Shown piece after piece: positions 3,200 through 21,779 of a stretch of 64,000 nt of DNA (its first letter is position 1; each line of letters starts with the position of its first letter). Location of the stretch: NCBI GenBank assembly GCA_017302815.1, contig JAFLCQ010000001.1, forward strand, positions 17,652 through 81,651, written 5' to 3'. The DNA is from Planctomycetota bacterium. Lineage in GTDB: Bacteria; Planctomycetota; UBA11346. Both the position numbers and the translations under genes were made by a program. The notes under the pieces are model-generated. The model was not told where the DNA came from. It did not search any database and saw only the letters and a list, made by a program, of their open reading frames with translations.

Positions 3200-3200
3200 C

Positions 3201-6200
3201 ATGCTCACCGCCATCATCGACTGGTCCCTGCGCCACCGCGTCGCGGTCGTCATCGGCGTCCTGATCTCGGTGTTCGCCGGGGTCATCGCCCTGCGCAGCA
3301 TCGACATCGACGCGTTCCCCGACACCACGCCGGTCCAGGTCCAGGTCAACACCGTCGCCCCGGCATTGGGACCGGAGGAGATCGAGCGCCAGATCACCGC
3401 CCAGGTCGAACAGGCCATCGGCGGACTGCCCAAGGTCATCAACGTCCGCTCGATCAGCAAATTCGGCCTGTCCCAGGTCGTGGTCGCCTTCGCCGACGGC
3501 ACTAACATCTGGTTCGCCCGCCAACTCATCGCCGAGCGCCTGAGTACCGTGGAACTGCCGGAAGGCATCGGCCGCCCGGAGATGGGGCCGGTGGCCACCG
3601 GCCTTGGCGAGGTCTTCCACTATATCGTGCGCAGCAAGTCGGGGGATCTGACCCAGGCCCGCACGATCCAGGATTGGATGATCAAGCCGGCCCTGCGCAC
3701 GGTGCCGGGCGTGGCCGAGGTCAACTCGTGGGGCGGATACGAGAAGCAGTACGAGATCCGTCTCGACCCCGAACGCCTGGTGGCGCGGGGATTGAGTCTC
3801 GACGCCGTCCTGGAACGGGTACGCGCTGGCAACCTGAACGTCGGCGGCGGAGTGGTGCAGCGCGGTGCGAGCACCTTGCTGGTGCAGGGACTCGGCCGGG
3901 TCGGCACGCTGGCAGAAATCGGCAATCTCGTGATCGCAGCGAAGGATGGAGTGCCGATCCGGCTGCGCGATGTGGCCGAGATAGGATTCGGCCACGAGAT
4001 CCGCCGCGGCGTGGTGACCGCAGACGGCCGCGGCGAGGCGGTGCTGGGCCTGGGCTTCCTGCTCATGGGTGAGAACTCCCACGAAGTCACCGCCCGCCTG
4101 CGCGCCAAGCTGGAGGAGGTCCGCCCCTTCCTGCCGCCGGACATCGAGGTCGATGTCGTGTACCAGCGCACCGAACTGGTCGACCATGTCATCGACACGG
4201 TGCGGAAGAACCTCTTCGAGGGCGGCCTGCTGGTCGTCGCCGTCCTCTTCATCTTCCTGGGCAACCTCCGCGCCGGGCTCATCGTCGCCGCCGCCATTCC
4301 CCTGTCGATGATGGTCGCCTTCGACGGCATGATGCGCTTCGGCATCGCCGCCAGCCTGCTCTCGCTGGGGGCGCTCGACTTCGGTCTGGTGGTCGACTCG
4401 TCGGTGATCCTCATCGAGAACTCGGTGCGACGGCTCAACGATCCACATGAGGCCAACCGCAGCGTCCTCGCGGTGGTGCGCGACAGCGCGGTCGAGGTCC
4501 TGCGTCCGGCCCTGTTCGGCGTGCTCATCATCATCATGGTCTATCTGCCCATCCTCACCCTGGAGGGCGTGGAAGGGAAGATGTTCCGGCCGATGGCGTT
4601 GACCGTCGTCTTCGCCCTGCTCGGCGCCATGGTCCTGTCGCTGACCCTGATGCCGGTCCTGGCGAGCTGGTTTCTCAAGCGCAGCGCTCATCCCGAGCAG
4701 GACCCCTGGCCGGTGCGCCTGGCGTCCTGGCTCTACGCTCCGTGCCTGCGCGTCGCCCTGCGCCACCGTCTGGCCGTCGTCGGCGCGGCACTGGCCAGTC
4801 TGTGCCTCGCCGCCCTGCTCTTCCGCGGCCTGGGCGCCGAGTTCATTCCGAAGCTGTCCGAAGGCAGCCTGGTGGCCAACACCATCCGCCTACCGGGCAT
4901 CAGCCTCGCATCGTCCGTGGCGGTGAACACCCGGATGGAGCAGATGATCCTGCGGGAGTTCCCCGATGAGGTGGACCATGCCTGGACCCGCATGGGCACG
5001 GCGGAGGTGGCGACCGATCCCATGGGCATCGAACTGGGCGACGTCTTCCTCGGCCTGAAACCACGCGAGGGCTGGACCAAGGCCAAGACCCAGGCCGAAC
5101 TGGCCGATCAGATCGCCCGCCTGCTGCGCGACCTGCCGGGCCAGACCGTCGCCATGACCCAGCCGATCGAGATGCGCATCAACGAGATGGTCAGCGGCGC
5201 CCGCGCCGATGTCGCCGTCAAGCTGTTCGGCGATGACATGGATCTCCTGCGCAGCAAGGCCGCCGAGATCGAGACCGCCCTCTATGGCGTCCAGGGATCG
5301 GACGGTATCAGCGTCGAGCAGACCACCGGCCAACCCTCCCTGCGCATCCGCGCCGACCCCGAGGCTTTGGCCAAGCACGGCATTCCCGCCAGCGAGGTCA
5401 TGGAAGTCATCAGCGCCATCGGCGGCACACCCCTCGGCGAGGTGGTCGAGGGGCAGTTGCGCTTCCCCTTGGTGGCACGGCTGCCCGCAGCCATCGGCGA
5501 TGATCCCGAACGCCTCGCCGACCTGCCCATCCTCGCCGCCGGTGGCGAGCGGCTGCAGCTGGCAACGGTGGCCAAGATCGAGACGACGCAGGAACCGCTG
5601 ACCATCACCCGCGAGTGGGGCCAGCGGCGCATCGTCATCCAGTGCAACGTGAAGGGCCGCGATGTGGCGTCATTCGTCACCGACGCCCAGGCCGCCATCG
5701 CCAAGGAAGTCACCCTGCCGCCGGGCCGGTGGCGGATCGAATGGGGTGGCCAGTTCGAGAACCTGGAACGCGCCCGCACCCGCCTGGCGATCGTGGTCCC
5801 CATCGTCCTGCTGACCATCTTCTTCCTCCTGCGCTGGTCGTTGGGCTCGGCCAAGCTCGCGGCCCTGGTGTACACTGCGGTGCCGGTGGCAGCGGTTGGA
5901 GGCATCGCCGGCCTGTGGTTGCGCGGCATGCCGTTCTCCATCTCGGCGGCGGTGGGCTTCATCGCCCTGGCCGGCGTCGCGGTGCTCAACGGCCTGGTCA
6001 TGGTGACCTTCATCCGGCAACTGCATCGTCGGGGCATGCCGCTGGAGGAGGCCATTGTGCAGGGCTCGCTGATCCGCCTGCGTCCGGTGCTGATGACCGC
6101 GCTGGTGGCCGCGCTCGGCTTCGTGCCCATGGCCCTGGCCACCGGCATGGGCGCCGAGGTGCAACGTCCGCTCGCGACCGTGGTCATCGCCGGCATCATC

Positions 6201-6356
6201 TCGTCGACCCTGCTCACGCTCATCCTCATCCCGGTGCTCTACAGCTGGTTCGAGCCGCGGGTCGTGGAGCAGGATGAGCCCGTCGACGAGGGGACCGTGC
6301 CACCGGAGCCACCTGCCCAACTGGAGCCAGCGCCTCATGGCGTTGATCAGACCTAG
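3201..6356 (+). CDS. Heavy-metal-efflux RND transporter permease (CusA/CzcA family)
   Basis: 1051 aa. N-terminus MLTAIIDWSLRHR...IDAFPDTTPVQVQV and the overall 12-TM/two-large-loop layout are characteristic of CusA/CzcA pumps. Third gene of the C-B-A order. Confidence 0.93.
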   Translation: MLTAIIDWSLRHRVAVVIGVLISVFAGVIALRSIDIDAFPDTTPVQVQVNTVAPALGPEEIERQITAQVEQAIGGLPKVINVRSISKFGLSQVVVAFADGTNIWFARQLIAERLSTVELPEGIGRPEMGPVATGLGEVFHYIVRSKSGDLTQARTIQDWMIKPALRTVPGVAEVNSWGGYEKQYEIRLDPERLVARGLSLDAVLERVRAGNLNVGGGVVQRGASTLLVQGLGRVGTLAEIGNLVIAAKDGVPIRLRDVAEIGFGHEIRRGVVTADGRGEAVLGLGFLLMGENSHEVTARLRAKLEEVRPFLPPDIEVDVVYQRTELVDHVIDTVRKNLFEGGLLVVAVLFIFLGNLRAGLIVAAAIPLSMMVAFDGMMRFGIAASLLSLGALDFGLVVDSSVILIENSVRRLNDPHEANRSVLAVVRDSAVEVLRPALFGVLIIIMVYLPILTLEGVEGKMFRPMALTVVFALLGAMVLSLTLMPVLASWFLKRSAHPEQDPWPVRLASWLYAPCLRVALRHRLAVVGAALASLCLAALLFRGLGAEFIPKLSEGSLVANTIRLPGISLASSVAVNTRMEQMILREFPDEVDHAWTRMGTAEVATDPMGIELGDVFLGLKPREGWTKAKTQAELADQIARLLRDLPGQTVAMTQPIEMRINEMVSGARADVAVKLFGDDMDLLRSKAAEIETALYGVQGSDGISVEQTTGQPSLRIRADPEALAKHGIPASEVMEVISAIGGTPLGEVVEGQLRFPLVARLPAAIGDDPERLADLPILAAGGERLQLATVAKIETTQEPLTITREWGQRRIVIQCNVKGRDVASFVTDAQAAIAKEVTLPPGRWRIEWGGQFENLERARTRLAIVVPIVLLTIFFLLRWSLGSAKLAALVYTAVPVAAVGGIAGLWLRGMPFSISAAVGFIALAGVAVLNGLVMVTFIRQLHRRGMPLEEAIVQGSLIRLRPVLMTALVAALGFVPMALATGMGAEVQRPLATVVIAGIISSTLLTLILIPVLYSWFEPRVVEQDEPVDEGTVPPEPPAQLEPAPHGVDQT

Positions 6357-6398
6357 ACCCTCCCCGTCCCACCCAACCCCTGAACCCCAGGAGATACC

Positions 6399-6716
6399 AT
6401 GATACACCCCATCACCCTCAGCCTGCTGCTGATCCTCGGCTGCAGTCCCTTTGCCGCCGCAGCAGATACCCCTGCTGCCGGCGAAGCCACCAAGGTCGAA
6501 CGTCTGAAGACCGACCAGTGGTGCTGGACGCATGATGTCCCCAAGGACAAGTGCGTCACCTGCGACCGCAAACTCATCCCCGCCCTCAAGAAGGCGAAGG
6601 ACTGGTGCAGCGAGCACGAAGCGCCGGAGTCGATCTGCGTGAAGTGCGATCCCAAAGGCGCCAAGGCTCAGATCGACGCGCTGCGTCCGACCGAGAAGCC
6701 CAAGGATGTGAAGTGA
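6399..6716 (+). CDS. Small secreted lipoprotein with two tandem WCxxHxxPxxxCxxC motifs (putative periplasmic metal-binding accessory protein)
   Basis: AGGAG RBS before the ATG. Signal/lipobox LLILGCS. Motifs WCWTHDVPKDKCVTC (nt 6519-6563) and WCSEHEAPESICVKC (nt 6603-6647). Sits 42 nt after the RND pump gene. Confidence 0.75.
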   Translation: MIHPITLSLLLILGCSPFAAAADTPAAGEATKVERLKTDQWCWTHDVPKDKCVTCDRKLIPALKKAKDWCSEHEAPESICVKCDPKGAKAQIDALRPTEKPKDVK

Positions 6717-7345: not shown

Positions 7346-7601
7346 CAGATCTCTGGCAATGCGGTTGGCGTGATCGCCCTGCAGGCCTGGATGGTCGATG
7401 GTCCTGTCGAGGTGCGGTCAACCTTCTGACTGGTGCCGGTAGCCAACCGGCTGGCCGATGGCAAAGCAGGTCGCACACGAAGACATCGTTGGACTGTGCC
7501 CCGCCATGGGTGAGCCACTGGCTGAAGATGCAGGTTGCAGGCGCTGACGGCAATGTGACCCGGTGGAAATTCGGTAAGCTAACGGTTGTTTGCCGTCTCA
7601 T

Positions 7602-7623
7602 TCATACACGATGCTGTGTATGA
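7602..7623. promoter_or_regulatory. Candidate ArsR/SmtB operator: perfect 8-6-8 inverted repeat TCATACAC-gatgct-GTGTATGA
   Basis: The palindrome abuts or overlaps the probable start codons (7620/7623) of the ArsR-family gene. ArsR/SmtB repressors usually autoregulate through such dyads. Confidence 0.55.
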
Positions 7624-8051
7624 TGGCCATAACCGCCGCCTCTGCCTCCAAGCCCAGTCCCGCTATCCTGGATCGTCGCCAGATGACGATGGTGGCATCG
7701 GCCCGGATCGCCCGTTTCTTCCGTCTCCTCGCTACCCCGGCCCGCCTCCGTCTGATCCACGCCTTGGTGTTGCACGGGGAACTCCCCATGCATCGACTGG
7801 CAGAGGCAGCCGACATGCGTCTCCAGGCGGCGTCCAACCAGGTGCAGCGCCTCGTCCAGGCGGGCGCATTGCATCGTCGCAAAGCCGGTCGCGATGCCTT
7901 CTACACCATCACCGATCCCTGCCTGATCCATCTGCTCGATGCCGGCTGGTGCCTGCTGGATGACCGGCAGGCCAGGGTCTCTGGCCGCCTGACCACCTCC
8001 TGCTCAAGGACCACCACATGCCCTCCCACTTCCGCTCCCTGTTCCTGCTGA
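7620..8051 (+). CDS. ArsR/SmtB-family metalloregulatory transcriptional repressor
   Basis: wHTH core IARFFRLLATPARLRLIHALVLHGELPMHRLAEAADMRLQAASNQVQRLVQAGALHRRKAGRDAFYTI is typical of ArsR family proteins. The start is uncertain (7590, 7620 or 7683, all in frame). Confidence 0.85.
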   Translation: MMAITAASASKPSPAILDRRQMTMVASARIARFFRLLATPARLRLIHALVLHGELPMHRLAEAADMRLQAASNQVQRLVQAGALHRRKAGRDAFYTITDPCLIHLLDAGWCLLDDRQARVSGRLTTSCSRTTTCPPTSAPCSC

Positions 8052-8524
8052 CGTTGATCGCCGCCACGGCGTCCGCCGCCGAGGCGTGCGGTCCAGCCTG
8101 TGCTCCAGGCGACACGTCAACCACGGCACCCGTTGCGGGGGCATGCGCACCAGCAGCAGTGCCCGCCACCGCCCCAGTCGCTGCTCCAGCACCACCGAAT
8201 CCCGCTCCCGTAGCCGCTGTCCCCGCTACCCCCGCACCACAACGCCGGACGCTGGCGGCCCTCCTGGATGCTCCCGAGAGCCAGCGTGACGTGCCGATCA
8301 TCCTGGAAGGCCACTTCGTGAACGTGTGCTGTGCCGGGTGCTTCACCTACAAGGAGGGCGTCGACGCGATCGAGGTGCGGACGACGGTCACGGGTTGGGA
8401 ACGCTATGCCGCTGGGACCCCGGTGCGCCTCCAGGGTAGTCTCCGCGTGGTCGAGAAGCGGACGGCGGCAGGCGGCACCCAGAAGCTGCTGCACATCGAG
8501 GCCACCAGCGTGGAGACGCGATGA
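8018..8524 (+). CDS. Secreted Cys-containing hypothetical protein (signal peptide, Ala/Pro-rich linker, C-terminal compact domain with CCAGC)
   Basis: Signal peptide MPSHFRSLFLLTLIAATASAAEA. Cys clusters CGPACAPGD and NVCCAGC. Its stop overlaps the start of the FtsX-like permease (ATGA at 8521-8524). Confidence 0.65.
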   Translation: MPSHFRSLFLLTLIAATASAAEACGPACAPGDTSTTAPVAGACAPAAVPATAPVAAPAPPNPAPVAAVPATPAPQRRTLAALLDAPESQRDVPIILEGHFVNVCCAGCFTYKEGVDAIEVRTTVTGWERYAAGTPVRLQGSLRVVEKRTAAGGTQKLLHIEATSVETR

Positions 8525-9687
8525 ACCTGGCCGGCATGGCGGTTCGGAATCTCGCCCGCCATCCGATCCGCACCGGTCTGACCGTCCTCGGGGTCGCCTG
8601 CGCAGGCGCCACCGTCTTCGCCATCCTCGGCTTCGATCGCGGGTATGAACGCGCCTTGCGCGACGAGTTGACCCGCACCGGCGTCCATCTCTTCGTGTCG
8701 ACGGAGGGCTGCCCGTCGGTCGCTGCCACCATGCTGATCCGCGGCGGAGAACTGCCGCGCTACATGACCGACGCGCATCTCGCCGAGGCCAGGACCACGC
8801 CCGGCGTGCGCTTGGCCGGCGGTTATCTCATCGCCACCGGCATCCCGCCCGAAGGTGGGGGCATCGACCTGTTCTTCGGCATCACCGAGGAGGTGCCGCG
8901 GCTCAAGCCGGAATGGCACCTCGACGGTGCGTGGTTCTCGGCGCCGGACGCAGCCGAAGCCATCCTCGGCGCCACCATGGCTGAACGCTTCCAAGCAGCC
9001 ATCGGCAGCAGCATCACCATTCCCAGCCTCGCCCGCGAGGTCCGCGTCGTCGGCATCCTGGAGCGCACCCGCAGCCAGGACGACCAGTTCATCTTCCTGC
9101 CCATCCAGACGGCACAGCGCTGGTTCCGCAAGGACGGCAAGCTGACCGCCATCGGGGTGCAGGCCGAGTCCGTCGAGCAGATTCCCGCGGTGAAGACGGC
9201 GCTGGAGCGCATGCCGGACGCCTACGTGGTGCCGGCCGAGGCGATGAGCCAGGAGATCCTGACCCTGGTCGGCGGCACCAAGGCCCTGATGACCGCGGTG
9301 GTCGGCATCGTCCTGGTGGTCAGCATCCTCGGTTTGGCGAACACCCTGATCATGGCGGCGATGGAGCGGCGCATGGAGTTCGCCGTCTTGCGCTGCGTCG
9401 GCGCCTCGCCGGGGCAGTTGGCCATGATGACCGTGCTCGAAGCCGCGGTGATCGCCCTGGTCGGCGTCATCGTCGGAACCAGTGCCGGCTGGATCGGCGG
9501 TGGCATTCTGGATGCCTGGATCCGACGCCACCTGCCCTATGCCCCGTCTGGCGATCTGCTGCAACCGGATCTCATGGTCACGGCCATGACCGGCGTCGCC
9601 ATCCTCATCCTGGCCTTGGCGGCGGCGTTGTGGCCGGCGTGGCGGACGGCGCGCATCGCTCCGCTGGAGGCATTGCGTCATGGTTGA
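8521..9687 (+). CDS. ABC transporter permease, FtsX/MacB-LolCE family
   Basis: N-terminus MAVRNLARHPIRTGLTVLGVA, a large periplasmic loop and a C-terminal FtsX-type 3-TM bundle. Translationally coupled to the ATPase (8-nt overlap). Confidence 0.88.
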   Translation: MNLAGMAVRNLARHPIRTGLTVLGVACAGATVFAILGFDRGYERALRDELTRTGVHLFVSTEGCPSVAATMLIRGGELPRYMTDAHLAEARTTPGVRLAGGYLIATGIPPEGGGIDLFFGITEEVPRLKPEWHLDGAWFSAPDAAEAILGATMAERFQAAIGSSITIPSLAREVRVVGILERTRSQDDQFIFLPIQTAQRWFRKDGKLTAIGVQAESVEQIPAVKTALERMPDAYVVPAEAMSQEILTLVGGTKALMTAVVGIVLVVSILGLANTLIMAAMERRMEFAVLRCVGASPGQLAMMTVLEAAVIALVGVIVGTSAGWIGGGILDAWIRRHLPYAPSGDLLQPDLMVTAMTGVAILILALAAALWPAWRTARIAPLEALRHG

Positions 9688-10366
9688 CCAGGCACCGATA
9701 CTCCGGGTCCGCGGGCTGACCCGGCACCACCGCCTCGGCGAGCACGTCCTGCGGGCGCTCGATGGGGTAGACCTCGACATCCAACCGGGCACCTGCACCG
9801 CCATTGTCGGACCGTCGGGGTCCGGCAAGAGCACCCTGCTGGGATGCCTTGGTCTGGTGGATCGACCCGATGCCGGCACCATCGAACTGGACGGGGTGGA
9901 CATCACCCGCAGTACCGAGACCGAACGGTCGCAGGTGCGGCGCAGCCGCATTGGCATCGTCTTCCAGCAGTTCCACCTCATGCCGCACCTGACCGCGTTG
10001 GAGAACGCCATCCTGCCGACCGTCTTCCATGTCGCGGGCCGCCGCGGCGCCGAAGAGCGCGGCCGAGCCCTGCTGGAACGGGTCGGCCTCGGCGCCCGGC
10101 TGCATCATCGCCCGCGCCAGCTCTCAGGCGGCGAGCAGCAACGAGTGGCCATCGCCCGGGCGATGATCCACACCCCGGGCATCCTGCTTGCCGATGAACC
10201 GACCGCGAACCTGGACTCGCAGAACAGCCGCGGCGTCGTCTCCCTACTCCGCGAGCTGGCCGGCAGTGGTGTGGCTGTGGTCCTGGTGACGCATGATCCA
10301 GAGGTCGCCGCAGACGTGCATGCCTGCTACCATATGCGGGATGGGCGGTTCATTCATGGAGGGTAA
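9680..10366 (+). CDS. ABC transporter ATP-binding protein (MacB/LolD-like)
   Basis: Walker [13 protein letters not shown] signature [14 protein letters not shown], Walker B ILLADEPT. Confidence 0.93.
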
Positions 10367-10414
10367 GCTCCGCGGTGGCCGGCTATTCGGGTCGCCCGCC
10401 GGCCGGACACAGCC

Positions 10415-10984
10415 ATGAAGACCCGCGACAGCGGCATGCCCGACCAGGACTGGTGGGAATCCTTCTTCGATCCCGATGCGATCTTCGACGCGCTCGGGTT
10501 GCGCCAGTTCGATGGGCCGGTGGTCGATGTCGGCTGCGGCTACGGCACCTTCACCGTGGTGGCAGCCCGCCGGACCGCCCATCCGGTCATCGCCATCGAC
10601 ATCGAGCCGGCGATGGTGGAACTCACCGCCGCCAAGGCTCGACAGGCTGGGCTCCACCATGTCCAATGCCGATTGGCGGACGTCACCGAGGATTCGCTGG
10701 GAGTCGGGCCGGCAAGCACCGCCGTCGTGCTGCTGTTCAACCTGCTGCACTGCGAAGATCCGCTGGCCGTGCTGACCTCCGCCCGCGAGGCCCTACGCCC
10801 TGGTGGCCGACTCGCGGTGATCCACTGGCGCAGCGACGTGCCGACGCCGCGAGGACCGGATCTGTCCATACGCCCCCGGCCCGAGGCGCTACGGGCGCTG
10901 CTGGTTCAGGCCGGTTTCTCCATCGCCATCGAGCCAGTCGTGCTGCCTCCGTACCACTTCGGCCTGGTTGGTCGGACGGCATAA
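10415..10984 (+). CDS. Class I SAM-dependent methyltransferase
   Basis: Motif I VVDVGCGYGTFT, a post-I acidic residue (IAIDIE), and a later LRPGGRL motif. Confidence 0.85.
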   Translation: MKTRDSGMPDQDWWESFFDPDAIFDALGLRQFDGPVVDVGCGYGTFTVVAARRTAHPVIAIDIEPAMVELTAAKARQAGLHHVQCRLADVTEDSLGVGPASTAVVLLFNLLHCEDPLAVLTSAREALRPGGRLAVIHWRSDVPTPRGPDLSIRPRPEALRALLVQAGFSIAIEPVVLPPYHFGLVGRTA

Positions 10985-11010
10985 CAGCCGTCAAGTCGTG
11001 GGTTGCCGAT

Positions 11011-11027
11011 ATACCCATGGGGGGTAT
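11011..11027. promoter_or_regulatory. Candidate CsoR/RcnR-type operator ATACCC-ATGGG-GGGTAT (G-tract dyad)
   Basis: ATACCC/GGGTAT arms flank a G-tract 9 nt upstream of the repressor ATG. This resembles known G/C-tract dyads bound by CsoR/RcnR family proteins. Confidence 0.55.
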
Positions 11028-11035
11028 GGTACGAC

Positions 11036-11317
11036 ATGCCCCACACCCAGCACGACCGCCGCAAGCTCCTCGCCCGCGTCACCCGCATTCAGGGCCAGAT
11101 CGCAGCAGTGGCGAAGTTGCTGGAGCAGGACCACTCGGATTGCAACGCGGTCCTCCAGACCATCGCGGCCACGCGTGGGGCGCTGAACTCGCTGATGGCC
11201 GAGGTTATGGCTGGCCACATCCGCGAGCACGTCATCCCCGCTGACACCAAGGCGACGCCCGAGCAGGCCGACGCCGCTGAGCAGGTGATCGACATCATCA
11301 ACAGCTACCTGAGGTAA
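11036..11317 (+). CDS. rcnR: Metal-sensing transcriptional repressor, CsoR/RcnR/FrmR family
   Basis: Pattern RKLLARVTRIQGQIAAVAKLLEQDHSDCNAVLQTIAATRGALNSLMAEVMAGHIREH (conserved Cys and His positions). Immediately upstream of an RcnA-type exporter. The tracked ORF starts at a TTG (11003), but ATG 11036 leaves the operator upstream. Confidence 0.8.
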   Translation: MPHTQHDRRKLLARVTRIQGQIAAVAKLLEQDHSDCNAVLQTIAATRGALNSLMAEVMAGHIREHVIPADTKATPEQADAAEQVIDIINSYLR

Positions 11318-11321
11318 GGTC

Positions 11322-12371
11322 GTGGACATCACCGGCGTTTCCCTGACCTACCTGCCGATCGCCATCGGCCTTGGCGCTCTGCATGCCCTCGAACCGGGGC
11401 ACGCCAAGACCATGACCGCCGCCTATCTGGTCGGCATCCACGGTCGCTGGAGCGATGCCGTGCTGCTCGGCTTGGCTGCGGCGCTGACCCACAGCATGGT
11501 GGTCATCGGCATCGCCGTGACGGCCCTGTACGTCGGTCGGGAAGCCTTTGCTGGCGATGCGATCTGGTGGTTGCAGATCGGCAGCGGCGTCGTGGTCATC
11601 ATGCTCGGCAGCTGGATGCTGTGGCGTCGCCTGCGCCCGCAGGCCCGCGTCCCCCATCACCATGAGGCCTCGGCCCCCGTCGTCGCCACCGGACCACAGC
11701 ATCGCTGCGAGGTCAGCATTACCGGCGAGTTCCCCAACGAGCGCATGATCCTGCTCTTCGCCACCGCCCCGTCCGGTCTCGTCAGTGCCACGATCACGCG
11801 CCCTGGCGGAAAGACCGAGCGGCTGACCTTCGCTGTGGATGACGCGCAACCACTGCGCTTCGTGAGCGCGGAGACGCCCCAGGAACCCCACGAGTTCTCC
11901 GCCGTGATCGAACTGGCCAATGGCGAGCGTCTGCCCTTCGTCGTGACCGAACCCGAGGGCCACGGTCATGACCACCTCGATGATGTCGCCCACGCCAAGG
12001 CTCACGCCAAGCAGATGCCGACCTACGTCGGCACGGGCATGCGTCCGACGTGGTGGCAGGTGGTCGCCTTCGGCGTTGCTGGTGGCCTGGTGCCCTGCCC
12101 AGCCTCCATCAGCGTCATGCTCCTGGCCCTCTCCGTCGGGAGCACGGTGAGCGGCCTCGTCCTGGTCTTCGGGTTCAGCCTTGGGCTGGCGTTGGCCCTG
12201 GTTGGTGTCGGCTTGGTCGTGGTCGCTGGCGTGCACCACCTTGGCAAGAGCGGACGGTTCTCGTCGTTGTCGCGCTATGCTCCGGCAATCTCAGCCGCCG
12301 TGGTGGTCGCCTCTGGTCTGGCCGCAGTAGTGCTTGGTCTGGTGGGGCCTGGCCATCATGCGTCCGGGTAA
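11322..12371 (+). CDS. rcnA: Nickel/cobalt efflux permease (RcnA family) with an enlarged central loop
   Basis: Signature LGALHALEPGHAKT in TM1. His-rich loop segments (PHHHE, EGHGHDH, DVAHAKAHAK), six predicted hydrophobic helices, GTG start. Confidence 0.8.
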   Translation: MDITGVSLTYLPIAIGLGALHALEPGHAKTMTAAYLVGIHGRWSDAVLLGLAAALTHSMVVIGIAVTALYVGREAFAGDAIWWLQIGSGVVVIMLGSWMLWRRLRPQARVPHHHEASAPVVATGPQHRCEVSITGEFPNERMILLFATAPSGLVSATITRPGGKTERLTFAVDDAQPLRFVSAETPQEPHEFSAVIELANGERLPFVVTEPEGHGHDHLDDVAHAKAHAKQMPTYVGTGMRPTWWQVVAFGVAGGLVPCPASISVMLLALSVGSTVSGLVLVFGFSLGLALALVGVGLVVVAGVHHLGKSGRFSSLSRYAPAISAAVVVASGLAAVVLGLVGPGHHASG

Positions 12372-12556: not shown

Positions 12557-13576
12557 CTATGGGGCCAGCTTCATTCCCGAGGCCACGGGCTGCGTGTACG
12601 CGACGAGGTAGGCACCCTTCGGCGCGGGGATGCGCTGGAGACCGTAGCCGGCCGTTCGACGCACCGCCTGCTCGACCGCCACGCGCAGATCGCGGTTCTC
12701 CTCGGGAGCGAATACGAATCGCGACGCCATGGCCGCCGTGCGTCGGTTGAGTTCCTTCACCGCAGCCGCTCCAAGGGAGACAGAAGGCGGCAGTTCATCC
12801 TTCCACTGGGCGATGATGCAGGCTGTCCTGGTGATGGGTAGGCAGACCTCGGCGTAAGGGCTGCCCGGAGCCAGCATGTCGGGATGGCAAGCTGGCGCAC
12901 CGACGACAGCCGCCGAGACGGGGCAGTCCGACACGCACAGTCGCCCAACTCCGGGTTCAACCACGCCAAGGCTGAATGCCATCTGGCCAAGGGTCTGGAT
13001 GGTCTTGTCGGAAAAGGCGCTCTCCATCATCATCGTTACCAGCTTCGCGTTGCTGATCGTGATCTTGAACGCCCGCGATCCCTTCTCCTGGATCATCTCG
13101 GTGAGCTGTTGACGTACTGGCTCGGTCATGTCGTCGGGGAATGGCACCGGATTTCGCCGGAGTACATGGTCGCCAACCTCATGCAGCAACTCCTGGTGCA
13201 TCCGTTCGACCTGCTCCTTGAACTGCGGAATCCGGGCGCGGTAGGTCGAGATGATGGAGGCAACCTCGCCGCGATCCGCTTCGGTTATCGCGCCCCGTGC
13301 GACCACGTCGTGAATCCAACAGCTCTGATGGCTCTCGATGTCGGACATCATCGTCTCGATACTCGCATGGTCCAACGAACCATCTGCCCGCTCGATCGTG
13401 TGGTAGTCGGATTCGCAGGCGACGTTGAGGATGCCGGTCTTGAAGGCCCGGACAGGATCGGCCTTCTGGTAGACGCAGATGCGCTTGGGCTGATCCAAGC
13501 AGGCGAACTCCCGCAACAAGGACTGCGGGATGTAGTGGTGCCGTCTCGGCTCAGAGGCGTTGCTGGTAGGCGGCAT
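12557..13576 (-). CDS. DUF4238 domain-containing protein
   Basis: N-terminal RRHHYIPQSLLREF matches the hallmark HYvPqfyLr.F start of DUF4238. 339 aa. G+C looks locally lower than in flanking genes. Confidence 0.75.
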   Translation of the reverse strand: MPPTSNASEPRRHHYIPQSLLREFACLDQPKRICVYQKADPVRAFKTGILNVACESDYHTIERADGSLDHASIETMMSDIESHQSCWIHDVVARGAITEADRGEVASIISTYRARIPQFKEQVERMHQELLHEVGDHVLRRNPVPFPDDMTEPVRQQLTEMIQEKGSRAFKITISNAKLVTMMMESAFSDKTIQTLGQMAFSLGVVEPGVGRLCVSDCPVSAAVVGAPACHPDMLAPGSPYAEVCLPITRTACIIAQWKDELPPSVSLGAAAVKELNRRTAAMASRFVFAPEENRDLRVAVEQAVRRTAGYGLQRIPAPKGAYLVAYTQPVASGMKLAP

Positions 13577-13783: not shown

Positions 13784-14398
13784 ATGACCGGACAGCGCAA
13801 AACCGTTCCCCTGTCGCTCCCCTCGGATCTCGACCTGTACCTCCGCCAGGAGGCGCAGCGGACGGGTCAGCCTATCGCCCAGGTCATTCGCCGCGCACTC
13901 GGCGTCGGCATGCCGCTCCAGGACGACCCAGCCACCCTGGCCCGCGCCGTGCGCGATGTCTACCAGCGACCGACCGAGTACCCGATTTCGCTCAAGATCG
14001 CCCTCCGCGAAGCCTGCGTGGCCGCTGAAGACCGCATCTGCGACGCCCTGGCGCACGGCCGGATGTCGCGGGCAGACGAGGCGACCATCGACGGCTTCGT
14101 GCGGCAAGTCGGCCCCTACCAGATCGGCCCGAAGAAGTGGGTCTACGGCCCGGTCAGCATCAAGGACAAGGGCGAAGGCTTCGACCACATGGTCGTTGGC
14201 GACCAAGTCTTCACCGGCGACAAGGTCGTCGTGCGCAACCACCTCTTCCACCTCGCGCCGGCCTCCGTGGAACTCGATGGCCGCCTCTTCTGGGTCTACA
14301 CCAACGTGAAGATGGACGAGAACGCCACCCGCGTCTTCCAGGAGAACCTGACCCGCGTCTGGCGTGGCCTCAAACCCGAGCCAGAGACCTCTGAATAA
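13784..14398 (+). CDS. Hypothetical protein with N-terminal ribbon-helix-helix (CopG/Arc-like) segment
   Basis: Internal ATG (13784) of tracked ORF 12884..14398. The upstream part of that ORF is antisense to the DUF4238 gene. N-terminus KTVPLSLPSDLDLYLRQEAQRTGQPIAQVIRRAL has an RHH-like beta-alpha-alpha pattern. I do not recognise the C-terminal ~150 aa. Confidence 0.6.
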   Translation: MTGQRKTVPLSLPSDLDLYLRQEAQRTGQPIAQVIRRALGVGMPLQDDPATLARAVRDVYQRPTEYPISLKIALREACVAAEDRICDALAHGRMSRADEATIDGFVRQVGPYQIGPKKWVYGPVSIKDKGEGFDHMVVGDQVFTGDKVVVRNHLFHLAPASVELDGRLFWVYTNVKMDENATRVFQENLTRVWRGLKPEPETSE

Positions 14399-14572: not shown

Positions 14573-15481
14573 ATGCACCTCCTGTACCTGGACGCCTCCG
14601 GCACCGTCGAACTGCAAGATAGCTCGACCCATTACGTTCTCGCCGGCATCGCTATCCATGAGTCCTGGTGGAAGGCCGTCACTGAGGCCACCAGCCAGTT
14701 CGTCAGCCGCTACCGTCACGGTGCTCGACCCTTCGAGCTACATGCCAAGGAACTGCTCGACAACATCCCCGAGCAACGGCACATCGCGGGCTTCGGTGGC
14801 ATGACCTACGATCAGCGGCGGTCAGCCGTCGAAGCGATGCGGACGGCGACCTTGGCCGCTACTCCAGGCAAGGACAAGCCTGACCTGCGGAAACGGTACA
14901 ACCGCACAACCAACGTCCTGCACCTGACCGTGGCCGAGCGAACGCAATGCTACGAAGAAGCTCTACGCCTCATCGCCTCGTTCACTGATGTATGCCTCTT
15001 CTGCTACGCCATCGACAAGAAGCACGTCTTCCAGTCGCACGGCATGAAGGACATCTCCGAGGAGGCGTTCATGCAGGTCGTCTCGCGGTTCGACTATCTC
15101 GTTGCCCGACGGAACGCAGGCCGGAGACAGCCCGAGTCCTCGATGCTGGTCATCGACCGCGACGACGCCAAGGAAGACCTCCTCAAGCGATTGGCCGAGC
15201 GCTACCGCACCGAAGGACACCCCTTCGGCAAGGTCGAGCATGTCATCGAGCATCCGTTCTTCGCCAACAGCCACGAGAGCTTGGGCATTCAGATGGCAGA
15301 TATGGTGTCCCATGCCGTGCGCCGGTATCTTGAGAAGCCAAGCGACCAGACCCGTCTCGCCAATCTCCGCAGCATCTGGCCTCGGTTCGACGCACAACGC
15401 GACAGCATCCACGGCATTCGCCACTACGCCCCGAAGTCATGCCAGTGCGAGATCTGCGTCGGCACCGGCCGCGAGAACTGA
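14573..15481 (+). CDS. DUF3800 domain-containing protein
   Basis: N-terminal MHLLYLDASGT (the yiDESG-type start of DUF3800) and C-terminal LGIQMADMVSHAVRRY (lQ.aDl motif). Confidence 0.75.
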   Translation: MHLLYLDASGTVELQDSSTHYVLAGIAIHESWWKAVTEATSQFVSRYRHGARPFELHAKELLDNIPEQRHIAGFGGMTYDQRRSAVEAMRTATLAATPGKDKPDLRKRYNRTTNVLHLTVAERTQCYEEALRLIASFTDVCLFCYAIDKKHVFQSHGMKDISEEAFMQVVSRFDYLVARRNAGRRQPESSMLVIDRDDAKEDLLKRLAERYRTEGHPFGKVEHVIEHPFFANSHESLGIQMADMVSHAVRRYLEKPSDQTRLANLRSIWPRFDAQRDSIHGIRHYAPKSCQCEICVGTGREN

Positions 15482-15641
15482 ACAATGCTCACCCCTTGCA
15501 GGTCTTGCAGCGGATGCAGCGCGAGCGTCATGCCCTGCCCTCTGCTGCCATCTCCTGCCCTCATGGGGGACATTTTGAGGGCCAATGGCTTACGTCGCAA
15601 GGTAATAAACAACAAAGACTTACGGATAACCCAGGCCACGT

Positions 15642-15686
15642 TTGCCATGCTGTAGGTCGTGAGTTCGAGTCTCATCGCCCGCTCCA
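15642..15686 (+). other. tRNA-Gly(GCC) 3' fragment (anticodon loop to CCA); 5' half absent
   Basis: TTGCCAT-GCTGT-AGGTC-GTGAG-TTCGAGT-CTCAT-CGCCCGC-T-CCA matches positions 32-76 of a bacterial tRNA-Gly(GCC) (compare the E. coli 3' end GGUCGCGAGUUCGAGUCUCGUUUCCCGCUCCA). The upstream 5 nt (CACGT) cannot pair with GCTGT, and there is no GCGGGCG acceptor strand or D-arm upstream. Confidence 0.75.
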
Positions 15687-15690
15687 TTCA

Positions 15691-15725
15691 AAACCCTCGG
15701 TGAAAGCCGAGGGTTTTGTCTTTTT
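15691..15725 (+). terminator. Rho-independent terminator (AAACCCTCGG-tgaaag-CCGAGGGTTTT then GTCTTTTT)
   Basis: GC-rich stem flanked by A- and T-tracts, directly after the tRNA fragment. Confidence 0.85.
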
Positions 15726-15861: not shown

Positions 15862-18800
15862 TCACGGTTGGGGATTCGCGATGCCCCAGTTGCGAGGGAT
15901 CATGGCTGACGGATCCGTTCCGCTGAATCCGTCCGGGATCCAGGCGATGCGGCGGCCATCCGCGAGCCAGATCGCGGCATTGCAGCGGAACGCTCCGACC
16001 AGGTCGGGCAATTCCTTGGTCTCCTTCGACTTCTTCATGCGCCTGACCTCCATGGATCGCTTCCCGGTCAGTTCCGGAACCAATGCCAGGGGGATCTCCG
16101 CCTCCAGCCGCCAGCCGGCGCGATCGAAACGCTGGCGCACGGCGACCTTCGCGCCCGCGATCGGAGCGAGGCGGGGGCCCGCAGTCGGTCGACAGGCGAG
16201 GGCGAAGCCTGTCATGCTCCCATCGCTGCCCCGGCTGGCGCTGAGCACGATGCGGACATCGCCGGCCACGGGAGCATCACGATCGGGTGCCGAAGGACCG
16301 AGAAGGATCTCCACGGCAGGGAAGGTGCCGAATCCCTTTCCGGGATCGCCTCCTTGGGCGGGCAGGGCCGCCCAGGCGGCAGGATCGCAGACCTCGGCCA
16401 TCACGCAGAGCGCCCCTGCGTCGCGACGCATGCGGATCTCGCCGACCATGGCGCCCCGATCCCGGATCGGGAGACCGGGCACGGCCGGATCCCATTCGAA
16501 ATCGTAGCCGTTGACACCCTGATAGCGGCTGCCGGCGGTGTGCATCCAGGTGCTGGCCGGGATGCTTGTCCGCCCGTTCGCCTCGGTGCCGCGTGGTCTG
16601 GAGCTGGCCAGAACCACCTCTCCGCGCAGCCTGGTGATCTGGTCGCCCCAGATGCCATCGATGTCGACCACCCGCACATCCTCGGTGCTGAGGAAGGCCA
16701 GCCAGCGTCGGCCCGTCTGCGGATGCCGGTACAGCATCCCCTGCGCGACGTTCTCCATATACACGGCAGTCGGCCCTGCCGAGGCGATGCGGCCCTTCTC
16801 ATCCCGATTGACCCACCCCAGAGTGAGTCCATCGCTGGTATAGGCGGTGAAGCAGCTTTCGATCTCGGATGCAAGCAGCACGCCATCAAGCTCTCCGGTG
16901 AGGTTCATCAGCATCTGGTTGTCGCCGTCCTTGGGCAGACGGCCGTCATGATTGCCGATCACGAACTGGACCCGGCCGTCCGGGCCGAGGCGGGCCAGAC
17001 GGGTCTCGCTGGCACGGTCCCAGAAGTTGCGCCCCTGCTCTGGGCCTGCGTTGGTCACGATCCACCGTCCTCCGTCGGCGGCTGGCGGGCTGAATCTGAT
17101 GCCGTAGTTCTCCTGGTCGAAATAGAAGGCGGTCGGTCGATCGTCCTTCCAGACGGAGGTGTACGCCCCGCCAGCATACTGCGGCACGCCTCTGGCATCG
17201 ATGCTTGCCGGCTTGAGGTCCCCATATCCGCCCCGCAGGGTCAGATCGCGGTCGATCCAGGTCCAGCGGTTGCCGGGAAAGCGATCGCGACTGCATTCGT
17301 CGTCTTGCGCAAGTCCATCGCCGTTGCGATCCGACCAGCTGGTCACGTCCTTGCCATCACCGCCGGACGTTCCGGCCCAGGCTGCGCAGATCCAGCGTCC
17401 GGCGTCCCAGCGGAACAGCGCCCCATCGCGCCACAGATAGCGGATGCCGTTCACCCCGGTGAATACCAGCACCCGGCCGTAGCCGGAACCCATGGTCTTG
17501 CGCACCAAGTCGGGGGTGGCGGTGTCGCCCTCGCCGTCCTGGCTGAGGTAGTGGATGGCCGCGATGCGCCAGGCCTTGTCGGATTGCCCGGGATCCTTCG
17601 CAAATTGCGTGTAATCGACCTTCGCCTCGACGTAGTTGGGTGCCCACTGGCTGGTCTGATAGAATATAGTACCGGGATCATCGAGATCGATGCCGACACA
17701 GCCGAAGCCGACCGCTCCATATGTATCCTTGAGGTGCCGGCCATCGCGACTCAGCGTGATGAATCGTCGAGGAGCGTCCCAGCGTTCGGCGCACCACAGG
17801 TTCCCATCAGGGCCGAGGGCGAGATGCGTGATATTGCGGAATTGGAGAGGATCCCACACGGGTACGCGGTTCGATCTCCCACCTGCGCTCCCGAAAACCC
17901 CATTGGCGGTCGCGGCGCCGTCCGCCGCCAGCGCGTAGCGGCGGATCTGCTGCGACGGGCCGAGGTCGGAGACGTAGAAGCCGGATGGTCCGTCCGGACA
18001 CAGGGCGCGCACAGCGGATAGCCCTTCGACCAGTGGCTTGCTTGTGCCGCTGACGAGGTCCAGGCGAAGCACAGAGCCGCCGCTGCCCACGAGGAGGGTT
18101 CGGTCATCGAGCCGGCAGAGGCCCGATGGCGCGGGGATGGCGATATCCGGTAGGGCCTTGCCGCCGTTGGCGTCGATGACCAGCAGGCGATTCTTGCCAG
18201 GTTCGCTGAGGTAGAGCTTTCCGTCCACCAGCGCCAGGGCATCGTAATTGCGCCCCTCCAGGAGGAATTCCGCCGTTCCCCCGGACACACCGCCATAGGC
18301 CCGGGGTCGGCCGGTGGCGGCGTCGAGGCGGAGGATCTTCACCTTCTTGCGGTAAGAGCCGACGATGAGCGCCCACACCGAGCGGCCGTCCGCGGCCAAC
18401 GCATGGACTCCCGAGAAGGCTCCGATCGAGGTGAACCATCGCGCCTTCCCATCGACCGGGTCGATCTTCCGCAGGCAGGGTTGTCCCTCCTCGCCGACCT
18501 GGCCCATGTAGATCCCGGTCGCATCGGCGGCCACCGCTCCGATGCCGCCATGCGCACCACCGATCGATCCGAGGCCGTCGCTGGTACGGAACGATGGGCG
18601 TCCCGAGTTGCCGACGCTGGCGACGAAGGAGGTGCGGATGCCTTCGAAGTATCCGATCAGGTAGCGATACGTGCCTGCCGGAAGCGGCAGGTTCAGCCGA
18701 TCACGGCCGCTCCACAGGAATTCGTGTGATCCGGCAGGATACGGCGTGCAGCGGATGGGCTCAGCGACGATCCAGCCGCGCTCGTCCATGATCACGAGGC

Positions 18801-19638
18801 TGACCTGGGCTGGACGGGGCAGCTCCCAGCGGATCGGCGTTCCGCCCGCGGCCGCCGGGGCGGCGCTTGGCGGTACGGCTGCTGTCTGGCGGTTCCCGGG
18901 ATCGCTGGTGAAGAGGCGCGCTTTGCCCCATTGCTCGGGATGCAGCCGGGCTTCGGCGACGATGTCCCAGGTCGAGGCGGCATCTCCGCCGATGCTGCGC
19001 CACCATGCGGTGGCGACGTTGGCCGTGCCGGACGGATCGCTGAGGATCAGCTGCGCATCGAAGGCGATTTCGAGTCCTGCCTTCGGCGCCAGTCGGAGCG
19101 CCGTCCAGGGGACCGCGAGCTCCAGCGTGTAGCCTTCCCTGGACGCCTTGGCTGCGACCTTGGATCCCTCCAGGGCACCGACCCAATCCATGTCGAGCGT
19201 GCCGGATGCGGTGGTGAAATACCGGTACGGTTTCGAGGTGTCGGGCCAGCGCGGACGCATGGCGAGCAGCGTCGGGCGGTCACCGAACAGACCGGCCAGC
19301 AGGCGTTGTTCGGATCCCTGCACGCCAGGTGAACCGATGCAGAGTCCCACCGCGTCGCCGCCTTTGAACAGCTCCTGAAGCACGGTGGCTCCGTTCTTAA
19401 GCGGGCTGTCGTCGATGACCTGGAACAGGGCATAGAGGGACGAATCGTCCCATCCCAGCTTGAAGCGTGCTGCCGAACCGGTCACGGTGCGGATCTCCTG
19501 TTCCGCCTGGACCGAGTTCCACTCTGTCGCCACCCCGTCCACGAGTGGCGGCTGTGCCAGGCGGACCACGGCCGCCGGGACATCGGCGGCGGCCATGGCC
19601 GAGCATGCGGCCAGCATGATGCAAACGCGCAAGATCAT
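15862..19638 (-). CDS. Giant secreted protein: CBM9/DOMON-like module, FlgD-Ig-like module, beta-propeller-like core, C-terminal CBM9-like module (paralog 1)
   Basis: Signal peptide from ATG 19638 (MILRVCIMLAACSAMAAA). VDGVATEWNS...LYALFQVIDDSPL sugar-binding-like module. AGTYRY Ig module. SVGNSGRPSF and GGAHGGIGAVAADATGIYMG blocks are shared with the paralogs. EF-hand-like loop DRNGDGLAQDDE. Confidence 0.75.
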   Translation of the reverse strand: MILRVCIMLAACSAMAAADVPAAVVRLAQPPLVDGVATEWNSVQAEQEIRTVTGSAARFKLGWDDSSLYALFQVIDDSPLKNGATVLQELFKGGDAVGLCIGSPGVQGSEQRLLAGLFGDRPTLLAMRPRWPDTSKPYRYFTTASGTLDMDWVGALEGSKVAAKASREGYTLELAVPWTALRLAPKAGLEIAFDAQLILSDPSGTANVATAWWRSIGGDAASTWDIVAEARLHPEQWGKARLFTSDPGNRQTAAVPPSAAPAAAGGTPIRWELPRPAQVSLVIMDERGWIVAEPIRCTPYPAGSHEFLWSGRDRLNLPLPAGTYRYLIGYFEGIRTSFVASVGNSGRPSFRTSDGLGSIGGAHGGIGAVAADATGIYMGQVGEEGQPCLRKIDPVDGKARWFTSIGAFSGVHALAADGRSVWALIVGSYRKKVKILRLDAATGRPRAYGGVSGGTAEFLLEGRNYDALALVDGKLYLSEPGKNRLLVIDANGGKALPDIAIPAPSGLCRLDDRTLLVGSGGSVLRLDLVSGTSKPLVEGLSAVRALCPDGPSGFYVSDLGPSQQIRRYALAADGAATANGVFGSAGGRSNRVPVWDPLQFRNITHLALGPDGNLWCAERWDAPRRFITLSRDGRHLKDTYGAVGFGCVGIDLDDPGTIFYQTSQWAPNYVEAKVDYTQFAKDPGQSDKAWRIAAIHYLSQDGEGDTATPDLVRKTMGSGYGRVLVFTGVNGIRYLWRDGALFRWDAGRWICAAWAGTSGGDGKDVTSWSDRNGDGLAQDDECSRDRFPGNRWTWIDRDLTLRGGYGDLKPASIDARGVPQYAGGAYTSVWKDDRPTAFYFDQENYGIRFSPPAADGGRWIVTNAGPEQGRNFWDRASETRLARLGPDGRVQFVIGNHDGRLPKDGDNQMLMNLTGELDGVLLASEIESCFTAYTSDGLTLGWVNRDEKGRIASAGPTAVYMENVAQGMLYRHPQTGRRWLAFLSTEDVRVVDIDGIWGDQITRLRGEVVLASSRPRGTEANGRTSIPASTWMHTAGSRYQGVNGYDFEWDPAVPGLPIRDRGAMVGEIRMRRDAGALCVMAEVCDPAAWAALPAQGGDPGKGFGTFPAVEILLGPSAPDRDAPVAGDVRIVLSASRGSDGSMTGFALACRPTAGPRLAPIAGAKVAVRQRFDRAGWRLEAEIPLALVPELTGKRSMEVRRMKKSKETKELPDLVGAFRCNAAIWLADGRRIAWIPDGFSGTDPSAMIPRNWGIANPQP

Positions 19639-19776
19639 AAATGGTTCCGAGGGTTTGCGGTCATCATCATGCCTGGGCTTTCGAGGCCAGCAATGGCGGC
19701 AGATACACTTCACCTCCAGGGCAAGCTAAAGGCACGAAGATCGCCGGAATCGTGCGTTGTACTGATTTTTCCTGCT

Positions 19777-21663: not shown

Positions 21664-21779
21664 GTGTGCGCTCCCAGATCTCCGGCGATCCTAGCCAGGG
21701 GCGGCGGTGAGCGGTTCGGTCCTCGCCCCGTCGCTTTCGTGCGACGGTGAAACCAACCCGTCGATGCGGGCTATGAACC

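Follow-up and report, generated by a model that had tools for sequence, protein, structure and literature searches.

A division of tDNA islands into classes by the sublocation of the crossover was reportedly made by Williams in 2002. The Islander approach of Hudson, Lau and Williams (2015) recognizes such islands by the principle of a tDNA combined with its displaced fragment, and in that study the anticodon-centred crossover class accounted for 2083 of 3919 islands (PMC4383910). The element described here resembles these islands in that an integrase lies beside an apparently regenerated tRNA gene, a 3' tDNA fragment is found at the far end, the crossover maps to the anticodon loop, and the repeat extends from the anticodon loop to CCA. 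It differs from them in that its two ends are located on separate contigs, in that the repeat in its family usually runs on through a terminator, and in that the terminator copies of this genome differ by compensatory changes. Metal-resistance islands that can be excised by an integrase have also been described, e.g., G08 and G62 from Acinetobacter baumannii (PMC6070778). Like G08 and G62, the element studied here is large, contains heavy-metal efflux and regulator genes and is associated with a tyrosine integrase. Unlike G08 and G62, it has an uncultured planctomycete host, a tRNA-Gly target, and a replication-type module (a ligase, a DnaB-like protein, a PD-(D/E)XK nuclease and a 1698-aa protein) rather than a conjugation set. 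The class of element is well known, its biology is textbook knowledge and no new mechanism is involved; what is new lies in the specifics, i.e., a host from the Planctomycetota, a core of the replication type, a large cargo of metal-efflux genes and a repeat that includes a terminator.

The window analysed in this study is a stretch of 64,000 nucleotides, corresponding to positions 17652-81651 of contig C1 (JAFLCQ010000001.1) in a Planctomycetota metagenome-assembled genome, here called G000 (GCA_017302815.1), which consists of 567 contigs and is 72% complete. In the preliminary description of this DNA, a segment of 45 nt was recognized as the 3' part of a tRNA-Gly gene, from the anticodon loop to CCA, that lacks its 5' half, is followed by a strong terminator and is preceded by an AT-richer patch. 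All four observations hold. The segment, TTGCCATGCTGTAGGTCGTGAGTTCGAGTCTCATCGCCCGCTCCA, corresponds to nt 32-76 of a tRNA-Gly(GCC) and comprises the anticodon loop (TTGCCAT), the 3' anticodon stem, the variable loop, the T-arm, the 3' acceptor strand, the discriminator U and CCA. It is identical at 45 of 45 positions to the last 45 nt of the tRNA-Gly(GCC) on another contig of the same genome, C223 (c[45198..45242]), and zero matches of this type were obtained in dinucleotide shuffles of the window. No tRNA was found in the window by ARAGORN, and the segment was left uncalled by the Rfam tRNA model even at E<=1; since both are silent on the fragment, the 5' half of the tRNA is truly absent. The stem of the terminator spans 15689-15718 and the T-run extends to approximately position 15725. 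The GC content is 0.44 in the 52 nt before the fragment (15590-15641) and 0.56 in the segment 15482-15641, as compared to 0.66-0.68 on both sides. The other features of the locus are listed in Table 1. Of the labels that had been assigned to the genes to the left of the fragment, DUF4238 and DUF3800 were confirmed by Pfam, but the label RHH for a small ORF between them received no Pfam support.

Table 1. Features of the tRNA-Gly locus. Positions refer to the window unless a contig is named.
Feature	Position	Strand	Basis
Displaced 3' tRNA-Gly(GCC) fragment, putative attR core, direct repeat of the 3' end of the intact gene	15642..15686	+	45/45 to C223
Intrinsic terminator (13-bp stem, GAAA loop, T-run)	15689..15725	+	Folding z = -4.8; homology to the G001, G014 and C223 copies
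Putative element-side arm of attR (one attP arm), non-coding, GC 0.56 falling to 0.44 near the core	15482..15641		Homology to the G020, G009 and G018 elements and to the C334 relic
Conserved block with three TGCAG repeats	15490..15527		Alignment with the right ends of related elements
DUF3800 protein, last putative cargo gene before attR	14573..15481	+	Pfam PF12686, E = 1.3e-15
204-aa protein, no Pfam match	13784..14398	+	Gene call on Logan contig
DUF4238 protein	12557..13576	-	Pfam PF14022, E = 6.9e-28
Putative cargo: MarR-type regulator, MacB/FtsX permease and ABC ATPase, methyltransferase, RcnR/CsoR-type metal repressor, NicO nickel/cobalt exporter	7590..12371	+	L018 gene table; MarR by Pfam
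Putative cargo: czc-type heavy-metal efflux operon with OEP (444-1826), HlyD/CusB-type MFP (1679-3199), RND pump (3201-6356) and a small 105-aa gene	444..6716	+	Pfam
CBM9/FlgD-Ig protein, 1283 aa, first gene outside the putative island, convergent with the fragment	15862..19713	-	Pfam
Tyrosine integrase, 449 aa, not of Xer or integron type, with an HTH_17 Xis-like gene next to it	C223rc 21119-22468	-	PF00589, E = 1.2e-12; 188 nt from the tRNA end

The preliminary description had interpreted the fragment as the scar of a tyrosine-integrase element, with the intact tRNA gene at its other end, and had found no integrase in the window. We located the partner site with a whole-genome ARAGORN run and a match of the 45-mer, both of which led to one and the same tRNA-Gly(GCC) with an identical 3' part, at c[45198..45274] of C223. 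The second tRNA-Gly(GCC) gene of the genome, in a tRNA array on C1, has a quite different sequence, and besides C223 and C1 the only copy of the core in G000 is a 22-nt relic on contig C334. In the direction of the tRNA, C223 contains hemB, tRNA-Gly and a terminator, then an integrase gene on the opposite strand, a gene for an HTH_17 Xis-like protein and a DUF932 gene, which agrees with the scar interpretation. Beyond DUF932 follow genes for an ATP-dependent ligase, a DnaB_C protein, a PD-(D/E)XK nuclease, an NHL protein, the 1698-aa protein, for which Pfam gives a weak DEAD match only, and a RuvB-like/MoxR/DUF2201 trio. The hemB-tRNA-Gly flank is chromosomal, because it is syntenic in the congeners G001 and G005. 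The integrase is the sole tyrosine recombinase of G000 beside a tRNA-Gly, and the absence of an integrase from the window extends to the whole of C1. The C1 and C223 sites are identical at 7 of 40 positions to the left of the core and at 45 of 45 positions in the core, while the core and terminator taken together are 88% identical over 84 nt. This identity profile is that of an attL/attR pair. The two terminators are related and unequal, with AACCCCCGG...CCGGGGGTT on C223 versus AACCCTCGG...CCGAGGGTT on C1, which is a compensatory stem pair.

The repeat was also evident in contigs assembled independently of the metagenome-assembled genome, namely the Logan k = 31 contigs of the public run SRR13786855, which were retrieved by exact-protein look-up. 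A de Bruijn assembler halts k-1 bases into a stretch that is found in more than one context. The Logan contig that contains an identical DUF3800 gene stops 30 nt (k-1) into the core, and the contig that covers the right flank (L020) enters the core from the opposite side and likewise breaks off after 30 nt. Since both contigs end k-1 bases inside the core, the repeat is real, and the junctions between DUF3800 and the fragment and between the fragment and the terminator are not products of assembly or binning.

We compared the site to tRNA-Gly fragments in related genomes. Fragments without an intact gene were identified in G020, G009, G018, G012 and G003, all of which start at TTGCCATGC, the same nucleotide as in the window, and are preceded by unrelated DNA. 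The shared start is the first base of the anticodon loop, nt 32, in six genomes including G000, and this common start nucleotide is the signature of site-specific recombination in the anticodon loop. Integrase orthologs adjoin tRNA-Gly in several relatives, and integrases with 62-72% identity bound complete elements of 18.9 kb and 78.6 kb. Beside its intact tRNA-Gly, G009 has genes for an integrase with 72% identity, DUF932, a protein of 234 aa and a ligase, arranged as on C223, and its fragment is found on the same strand of this contig at a distance of 78.6 kb. The 18.9-kb version is found in G018, with the fragment and the tRNA-Gly in the same orientation on a single contig. G020, which belongs to another genus, has the split layout of G000, with the integrase and the intact tRNA on contig C69 and the fragment on contig C321. 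The latter contig contains a czc operon 17 kb upstream of the tRNA-Gly fragment, which shows 83% protein identity (CzcA) and 78-80% DNA identity to the operon in the window.

Within the tRNA part, the intact copies of G009, G018 and G020 match their fragment copies perfectly, and the repeat runs on through the terminator; its length, including the terminator, is approximately 85-90 nt in G009 and G020. The attP of the family thus carries tRNA nt 32-76 and a terminator. The terminator at attL of G000 closely matches the G018 version and hence arrived with the element. The terminator on C1 is of the type found in its own genus, with 1 mismatch over 82 nt (core and terminator) to G001, and it is homologous to the terminators at the integrase-free tRNA-Gly sites of G014 (89%) and G024. 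The terminator should not be read simply as native sequence downstream of the fragment, because the repeat of the element family normally includes a terminator copy.

The arm next to the fragment contains a conserved block with TGCAG repeats at positions 15497, 15506 and 15515, i.e., at a 9-nt spacing. The block is common to the right ends of the elements in G020, G009 and G018 and thereby links the C1 end to the family of the C223 integrase. From their sequence, the repeats are candidate arm-type Int/Xis binding sites, or may represent the remnant of a small inward-reading gene. Translations of the conserved arm block across the related elements yielded a short common motif and no conserved long ORF. 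An 87-codon ORF on the minus strand (15424-15687), called as a gene by Logan's gene caller, starts at the complement of the CCA-T of the tRNA and runs back through the fragment into the arm; it is probably spurious, with its middle overlapping the conserved TGCAG block.

We consider it likely, with a probability of roughly 0.8, that the fragment is the attR end of an island inserted into tRNA-Gly(GCC) by a tyrosine integrase, with strand exchange in the anticodon loop. The island would have carried its own copy of tRNA nt 32-76 and a terminator, regenerating a complete tRNA gene at attL on C223 beside the integrase module. The original 3' half of the tRNA and the resident terminator would have been displaced to the far end and would now be seen as the fragment in the window. 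All 33.3 kb to the left of the fragment on C1 would be island DNA, including czc-type RND operons, a P-type ATPase, ArsR/RcnR regulators, NicO, DUF4238 and DUF3800, and the unit is presumably still able to excise.

According to the preliminary description, the element either extends beyond position 1 of the window or is degraded; the content of C1 agrees with the former. The whole contig to the left of the fragment, 33.3 kb, is occupied by metal-efflux genes, followed by the genes for DUF4238, the 204-aa protein and DUF3800. The 17.6 kb of C1 before the window contain a further two genes for OEP proteins, an additional RND/MFP pair, two regulators of the ArsR type, another MacB-ABC pair and a P-type ATPase that has an HMA domain. 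A metal block of C223, in reverse-complement coordinates (C223rc) from approximately 46 kb to the contig end, contains genes for an OEP, an HMBD-CusB-type MFP, an RND pump, a kinase, a Cu-type P-type ATPase and YHS-like proteins. In total, at least five paralogous heavy-metal RND efflux operons are distributed across C1, C223, C323 and C532. The block at 7590-12371 has a DNA identity of 82% to contig C112 of G020 and of 87-89% to G006 and G001. The czc and NicO modules have a patchy distribution in congeners, at 72-89% DNA identity, sometimes in two copies and once at a distance of 2.7 kb from an integrase, and they are 78-82% identical in G020. The DUF3800 gene, which is identical on the independent Logan contig, is absent from the related elements, and the last 3.2 kb before the fragment are unique to G000 and have a lower GC content. 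Further diverged duplicates are seen in contigs C524 and C539, which match C334 at 78-87%. The duplicate regions of G000 could be true paralogues or DNA of a related strain that was binned with the genome.

Contig C223 ends within an RND gene that is continued on C323. An exact overlap of 67 nt restores a full-length pump, and the join is backed by C532, a collinear paralogue with 82-86% identity. C323 contributes approximately 5 kb of metal genes, then pilin-like, kinase and dCMP-deaminase genes up to the contig end. C1 begins inside a third paralogous MFP gene, which is interrupted at approximately residue 225 by 115 nt of AT-rich foreign DNA. Among the contig-end overlaps in G000, the 67-nt link between C223 and C323 was the sole one, with none joining C323 or C223 to C1, and exact-protein look-ups in public assemblies provided no extension past the start of C1 or the end of C323. 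The C223 attL and the C1 attR probably bound a single unit of at least approximately 96 kb, consisting of C223 (45.2 kb), C323 (17.4 kb), a gap and C1 (33.3 kb). Because attL and attR are on separate contigs of a 72%-complete genome, we infer their same orientation and physical continuity. Either the repeat-bounded unit includes at least approximately 70 kb of metal-efflux cargo, or the site is composite. Pfam scans that covered C223rc 21-66 kb, C323rc apart from a single ORF of 1557 aa, and C1 1-33 kb recovered no T4SS, coupling protein or relaxase, and no capsid, portal, terminase or tail genes. With no conjugation or virion genes in the assembled parts, the element does not qualify as a demonstrated ICE or prophage.

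Contig C532 was also considered as the neighbor of C1. It was rejected on an overlap of approximately 14 residues of different sequence, and represents a third paralogue.

A composite origin of the site, which we find unlikely, would make the fragment the attR of an older metal island that has lost its integrase. The 24-kb element on C223 would have entered the regenerated tRNA gene later, and the fragment separating the two would have been deleted or would be missing from the assembly. The scar would be real under this explanation, yet not the working partner of the C223 integrase. The composition of the mobile module (C223rc 21-45 kb), with a GC content of 0.58-0.65 versus 0.68-0.70 in the metal blocks and 0.697 in the genome, is in line with two separate parts, as is the size of just 18.9 kb of the G018 element from the same family. 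Such arrangements also seem to occur, since a fragment followed by an integrase in G012 has the appearance of a tandem array, and a genome that is 72% complete may lack the intervening piece. The main reason for giving weight to an older neighbor island is the relic arm on C334, which indicates that ends of the tRNA-Gly family persist as relics. Unlike that decayed relic, however, the copy on C1 is perfect at 45 of 45 positions, and the arm beside it is the conserved right arm of the family. A search for degenerate internal copies of the core or terminator in C223rc, C323rc, C532 and the left portion of C1 found none, and the contig ends are all free of partial cores, which argues against a simple tandem array. 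Moreover, the 78.6-kb element of G009, which is of this family, is a single repeat-bounded unit.

The right flank bears on a second alternative. It contains genes for the CBM9/FlgD-Ig protein, a heparinase II/III-like protein, BNR, DHDPS and AraC proteins, and has almost no DNA match in six congeners; the 1283-aa gene is without an ortholog in the genus. A 24-mer from the right flank gave 0 matches to metagenome contigs, a collection from which the organism is evidently absent. Since the flank has no counterpart in the congeners, no empty site is demonstrable for this species. The comparison with relatives foreseen in the preliminary description did reveal the shared fragment breakpoint and complete repeat-bounded elements. 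The closest thing to an empty-site comparison is provided by two cases. In G005, hemB and tRNA-Gly are found without an integrase and with a different right flank, in that rfbF/rfbG follow tRNA-Gly; the rfbF/rfbG genes of G000 are on an unrelated small contig. In G014, the order is MarC-tRNA-Gly-SRAP without an integrase, versus MarC-tRNA-int and fragment-SRAP in G020, with SRAP inverted.

The near absence of matches in the congeners would also be expected if the fragment marked a junction within an array that extends farther rightward. In that case, the CBM9/heparinase/BNR cluster would have been acquired as well, perhaps together with the remainder of the contig and its array of 35 tRNA genes, and the true chromosomal flank would be located farther away. 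A foreign-looking tRNA array does occur 52 kb to the right, and the layout of fragment and terminator is the same as that of the family's attP or of a tandem junction. We nevertheless regard this explanation as quite improbable: there is no integrase on C1, neither the 72 kb on the right nor the rest of the genome, apart from the C334 relic, contains another Gly fragment, and beyond the terminator the sequence does not resemble the integrase-side arms of C223 or G001. Given the homologous terminators at the integrase-free sites of G014 and G024, a true chromosomal junction should have a resident terminator. Finally, it is highly improbable that the fragment is a truncated tRNA pseudogene unrelated to integration, or that C1 and C223 come from different organisms in a binning chimera, since despite the fragmented assembly and its diverged duplicates (C532, C524 and C539 at 78-88% to other contigs), the 45/45 identity begins exactly at the anticodon loop, at a breakpoint common to five other genomes, the raw-run contigs of one sample end in the way that a two-copy repeat would predict, and the shuffles contain nothing comparable.

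With the fragment taken as the attR end of an integrated island, the scar defines where a large acquired region of this uncultured planctomycete ends on the right, and it connects heavy-metal efflux genes over approximately 33 kb, probably over 96 kb or more, with one particular integrase and tRNA target. The exact attL, attR, attB and attP junction sequences are now given. The finding is of value for annotation and for tracing the movement of metal-resistance modules among planctomycetes. A broader scenario can be offered as a tentative suggestion only. One integrase family directed at the anticodon loop of tRNA-Gly(GCC) might move modular islands of approximately 19-100 kb between the genera of this one planctomycete family, with a small self-replicating core (integrase, Xis, DUF932, ligase and helicase/polymerase) serving as the vehicle for tens of kilobases of swappable metal-efflux cargo. 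Besides the 3' half of the tRNA, its attP would include a working terminator kept foldable by compensatory changes, and a sister lineage within G000 might have been retargeted to tRNA-Leu(GAG), keeping a relic of the Gly-type arm.

A second element of G000 is inserted in a tRNA-Leu(GAG) gene at C334:6071-7910, where the order is tRNA, a terminator hairpin of the same family, ACGCTAAAAT arm repeats, a 412-aa integrase and a 97-aa Xis-like gene. It is 68-78% identical in DNA to C223 in the DUF932 and PD-(D/E)XK regions, and a matching 3' fragment of tRNA-Leu of at least 50 nt is found on the minus strand of contig C445 (443-492). At C334:46770-46852, a Gly-type right arm leads into a core that breaks off after 22 nt, 1 of which is a mismatch, and gives way to unrelated DNA. 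This is a decayed end of the tRNA-Gly element family. It is located to the right of four paralogous genes for proteins of approximately 290-330 aa and to the left of Moco/nitrate-reductase genes, inside the tRNA-Leu-associated region; arm swapping between Gly- and Leu-type elements is a possibility for its origin.

The terminator hairpins belong to a family of the form AACCCNCGG-TGAAAG/A-CCGNGGGTT, which is found after tRNA-Gly in the window (15689-15718) and on C223, and after tRNA-Leu at C334:6158-6190. The stem is kept by compensatory changes among the copies, and the hairpin is inside the direct repeat of the relatives' elements. A related sequence, as identified by local alignment score only, is situated near a tRNA-Met at C1:103069-103269. 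On contig C5 of G012 (L025, approximately 3150-6382), a tRNA-Gly fragment rather than an intact gene is followed approximately 2 kb on by a 61%-identical integrase, which indicates a tandem array. On contig C69 of G020 (L028), ARAGORN reported an unusually long tRNA-Glu(CTC) of 93 nt at 3253-3345, just inside the element and directly after the integrase gene; this may be either a false prediction or a tRNA carried by the element. The AT-rich interruption of the MFP gene at the end of C1 (C1:1-115, L030) contains a hairpin, has no Rfam match and no second copy in G000, and probably represents the end of a mobile element that inserted there. Past the end of the window, the minus strand of C1:85189-90840 (L031; equivalent to window positions 67538-73189) contains 35 tRNA genes in 5.65 kb for almost all amino acids, 29 of which score above the Rfam gathering threshold, and the tRNA-Gly(GCC) of this array is very unlike the chromosomal one.
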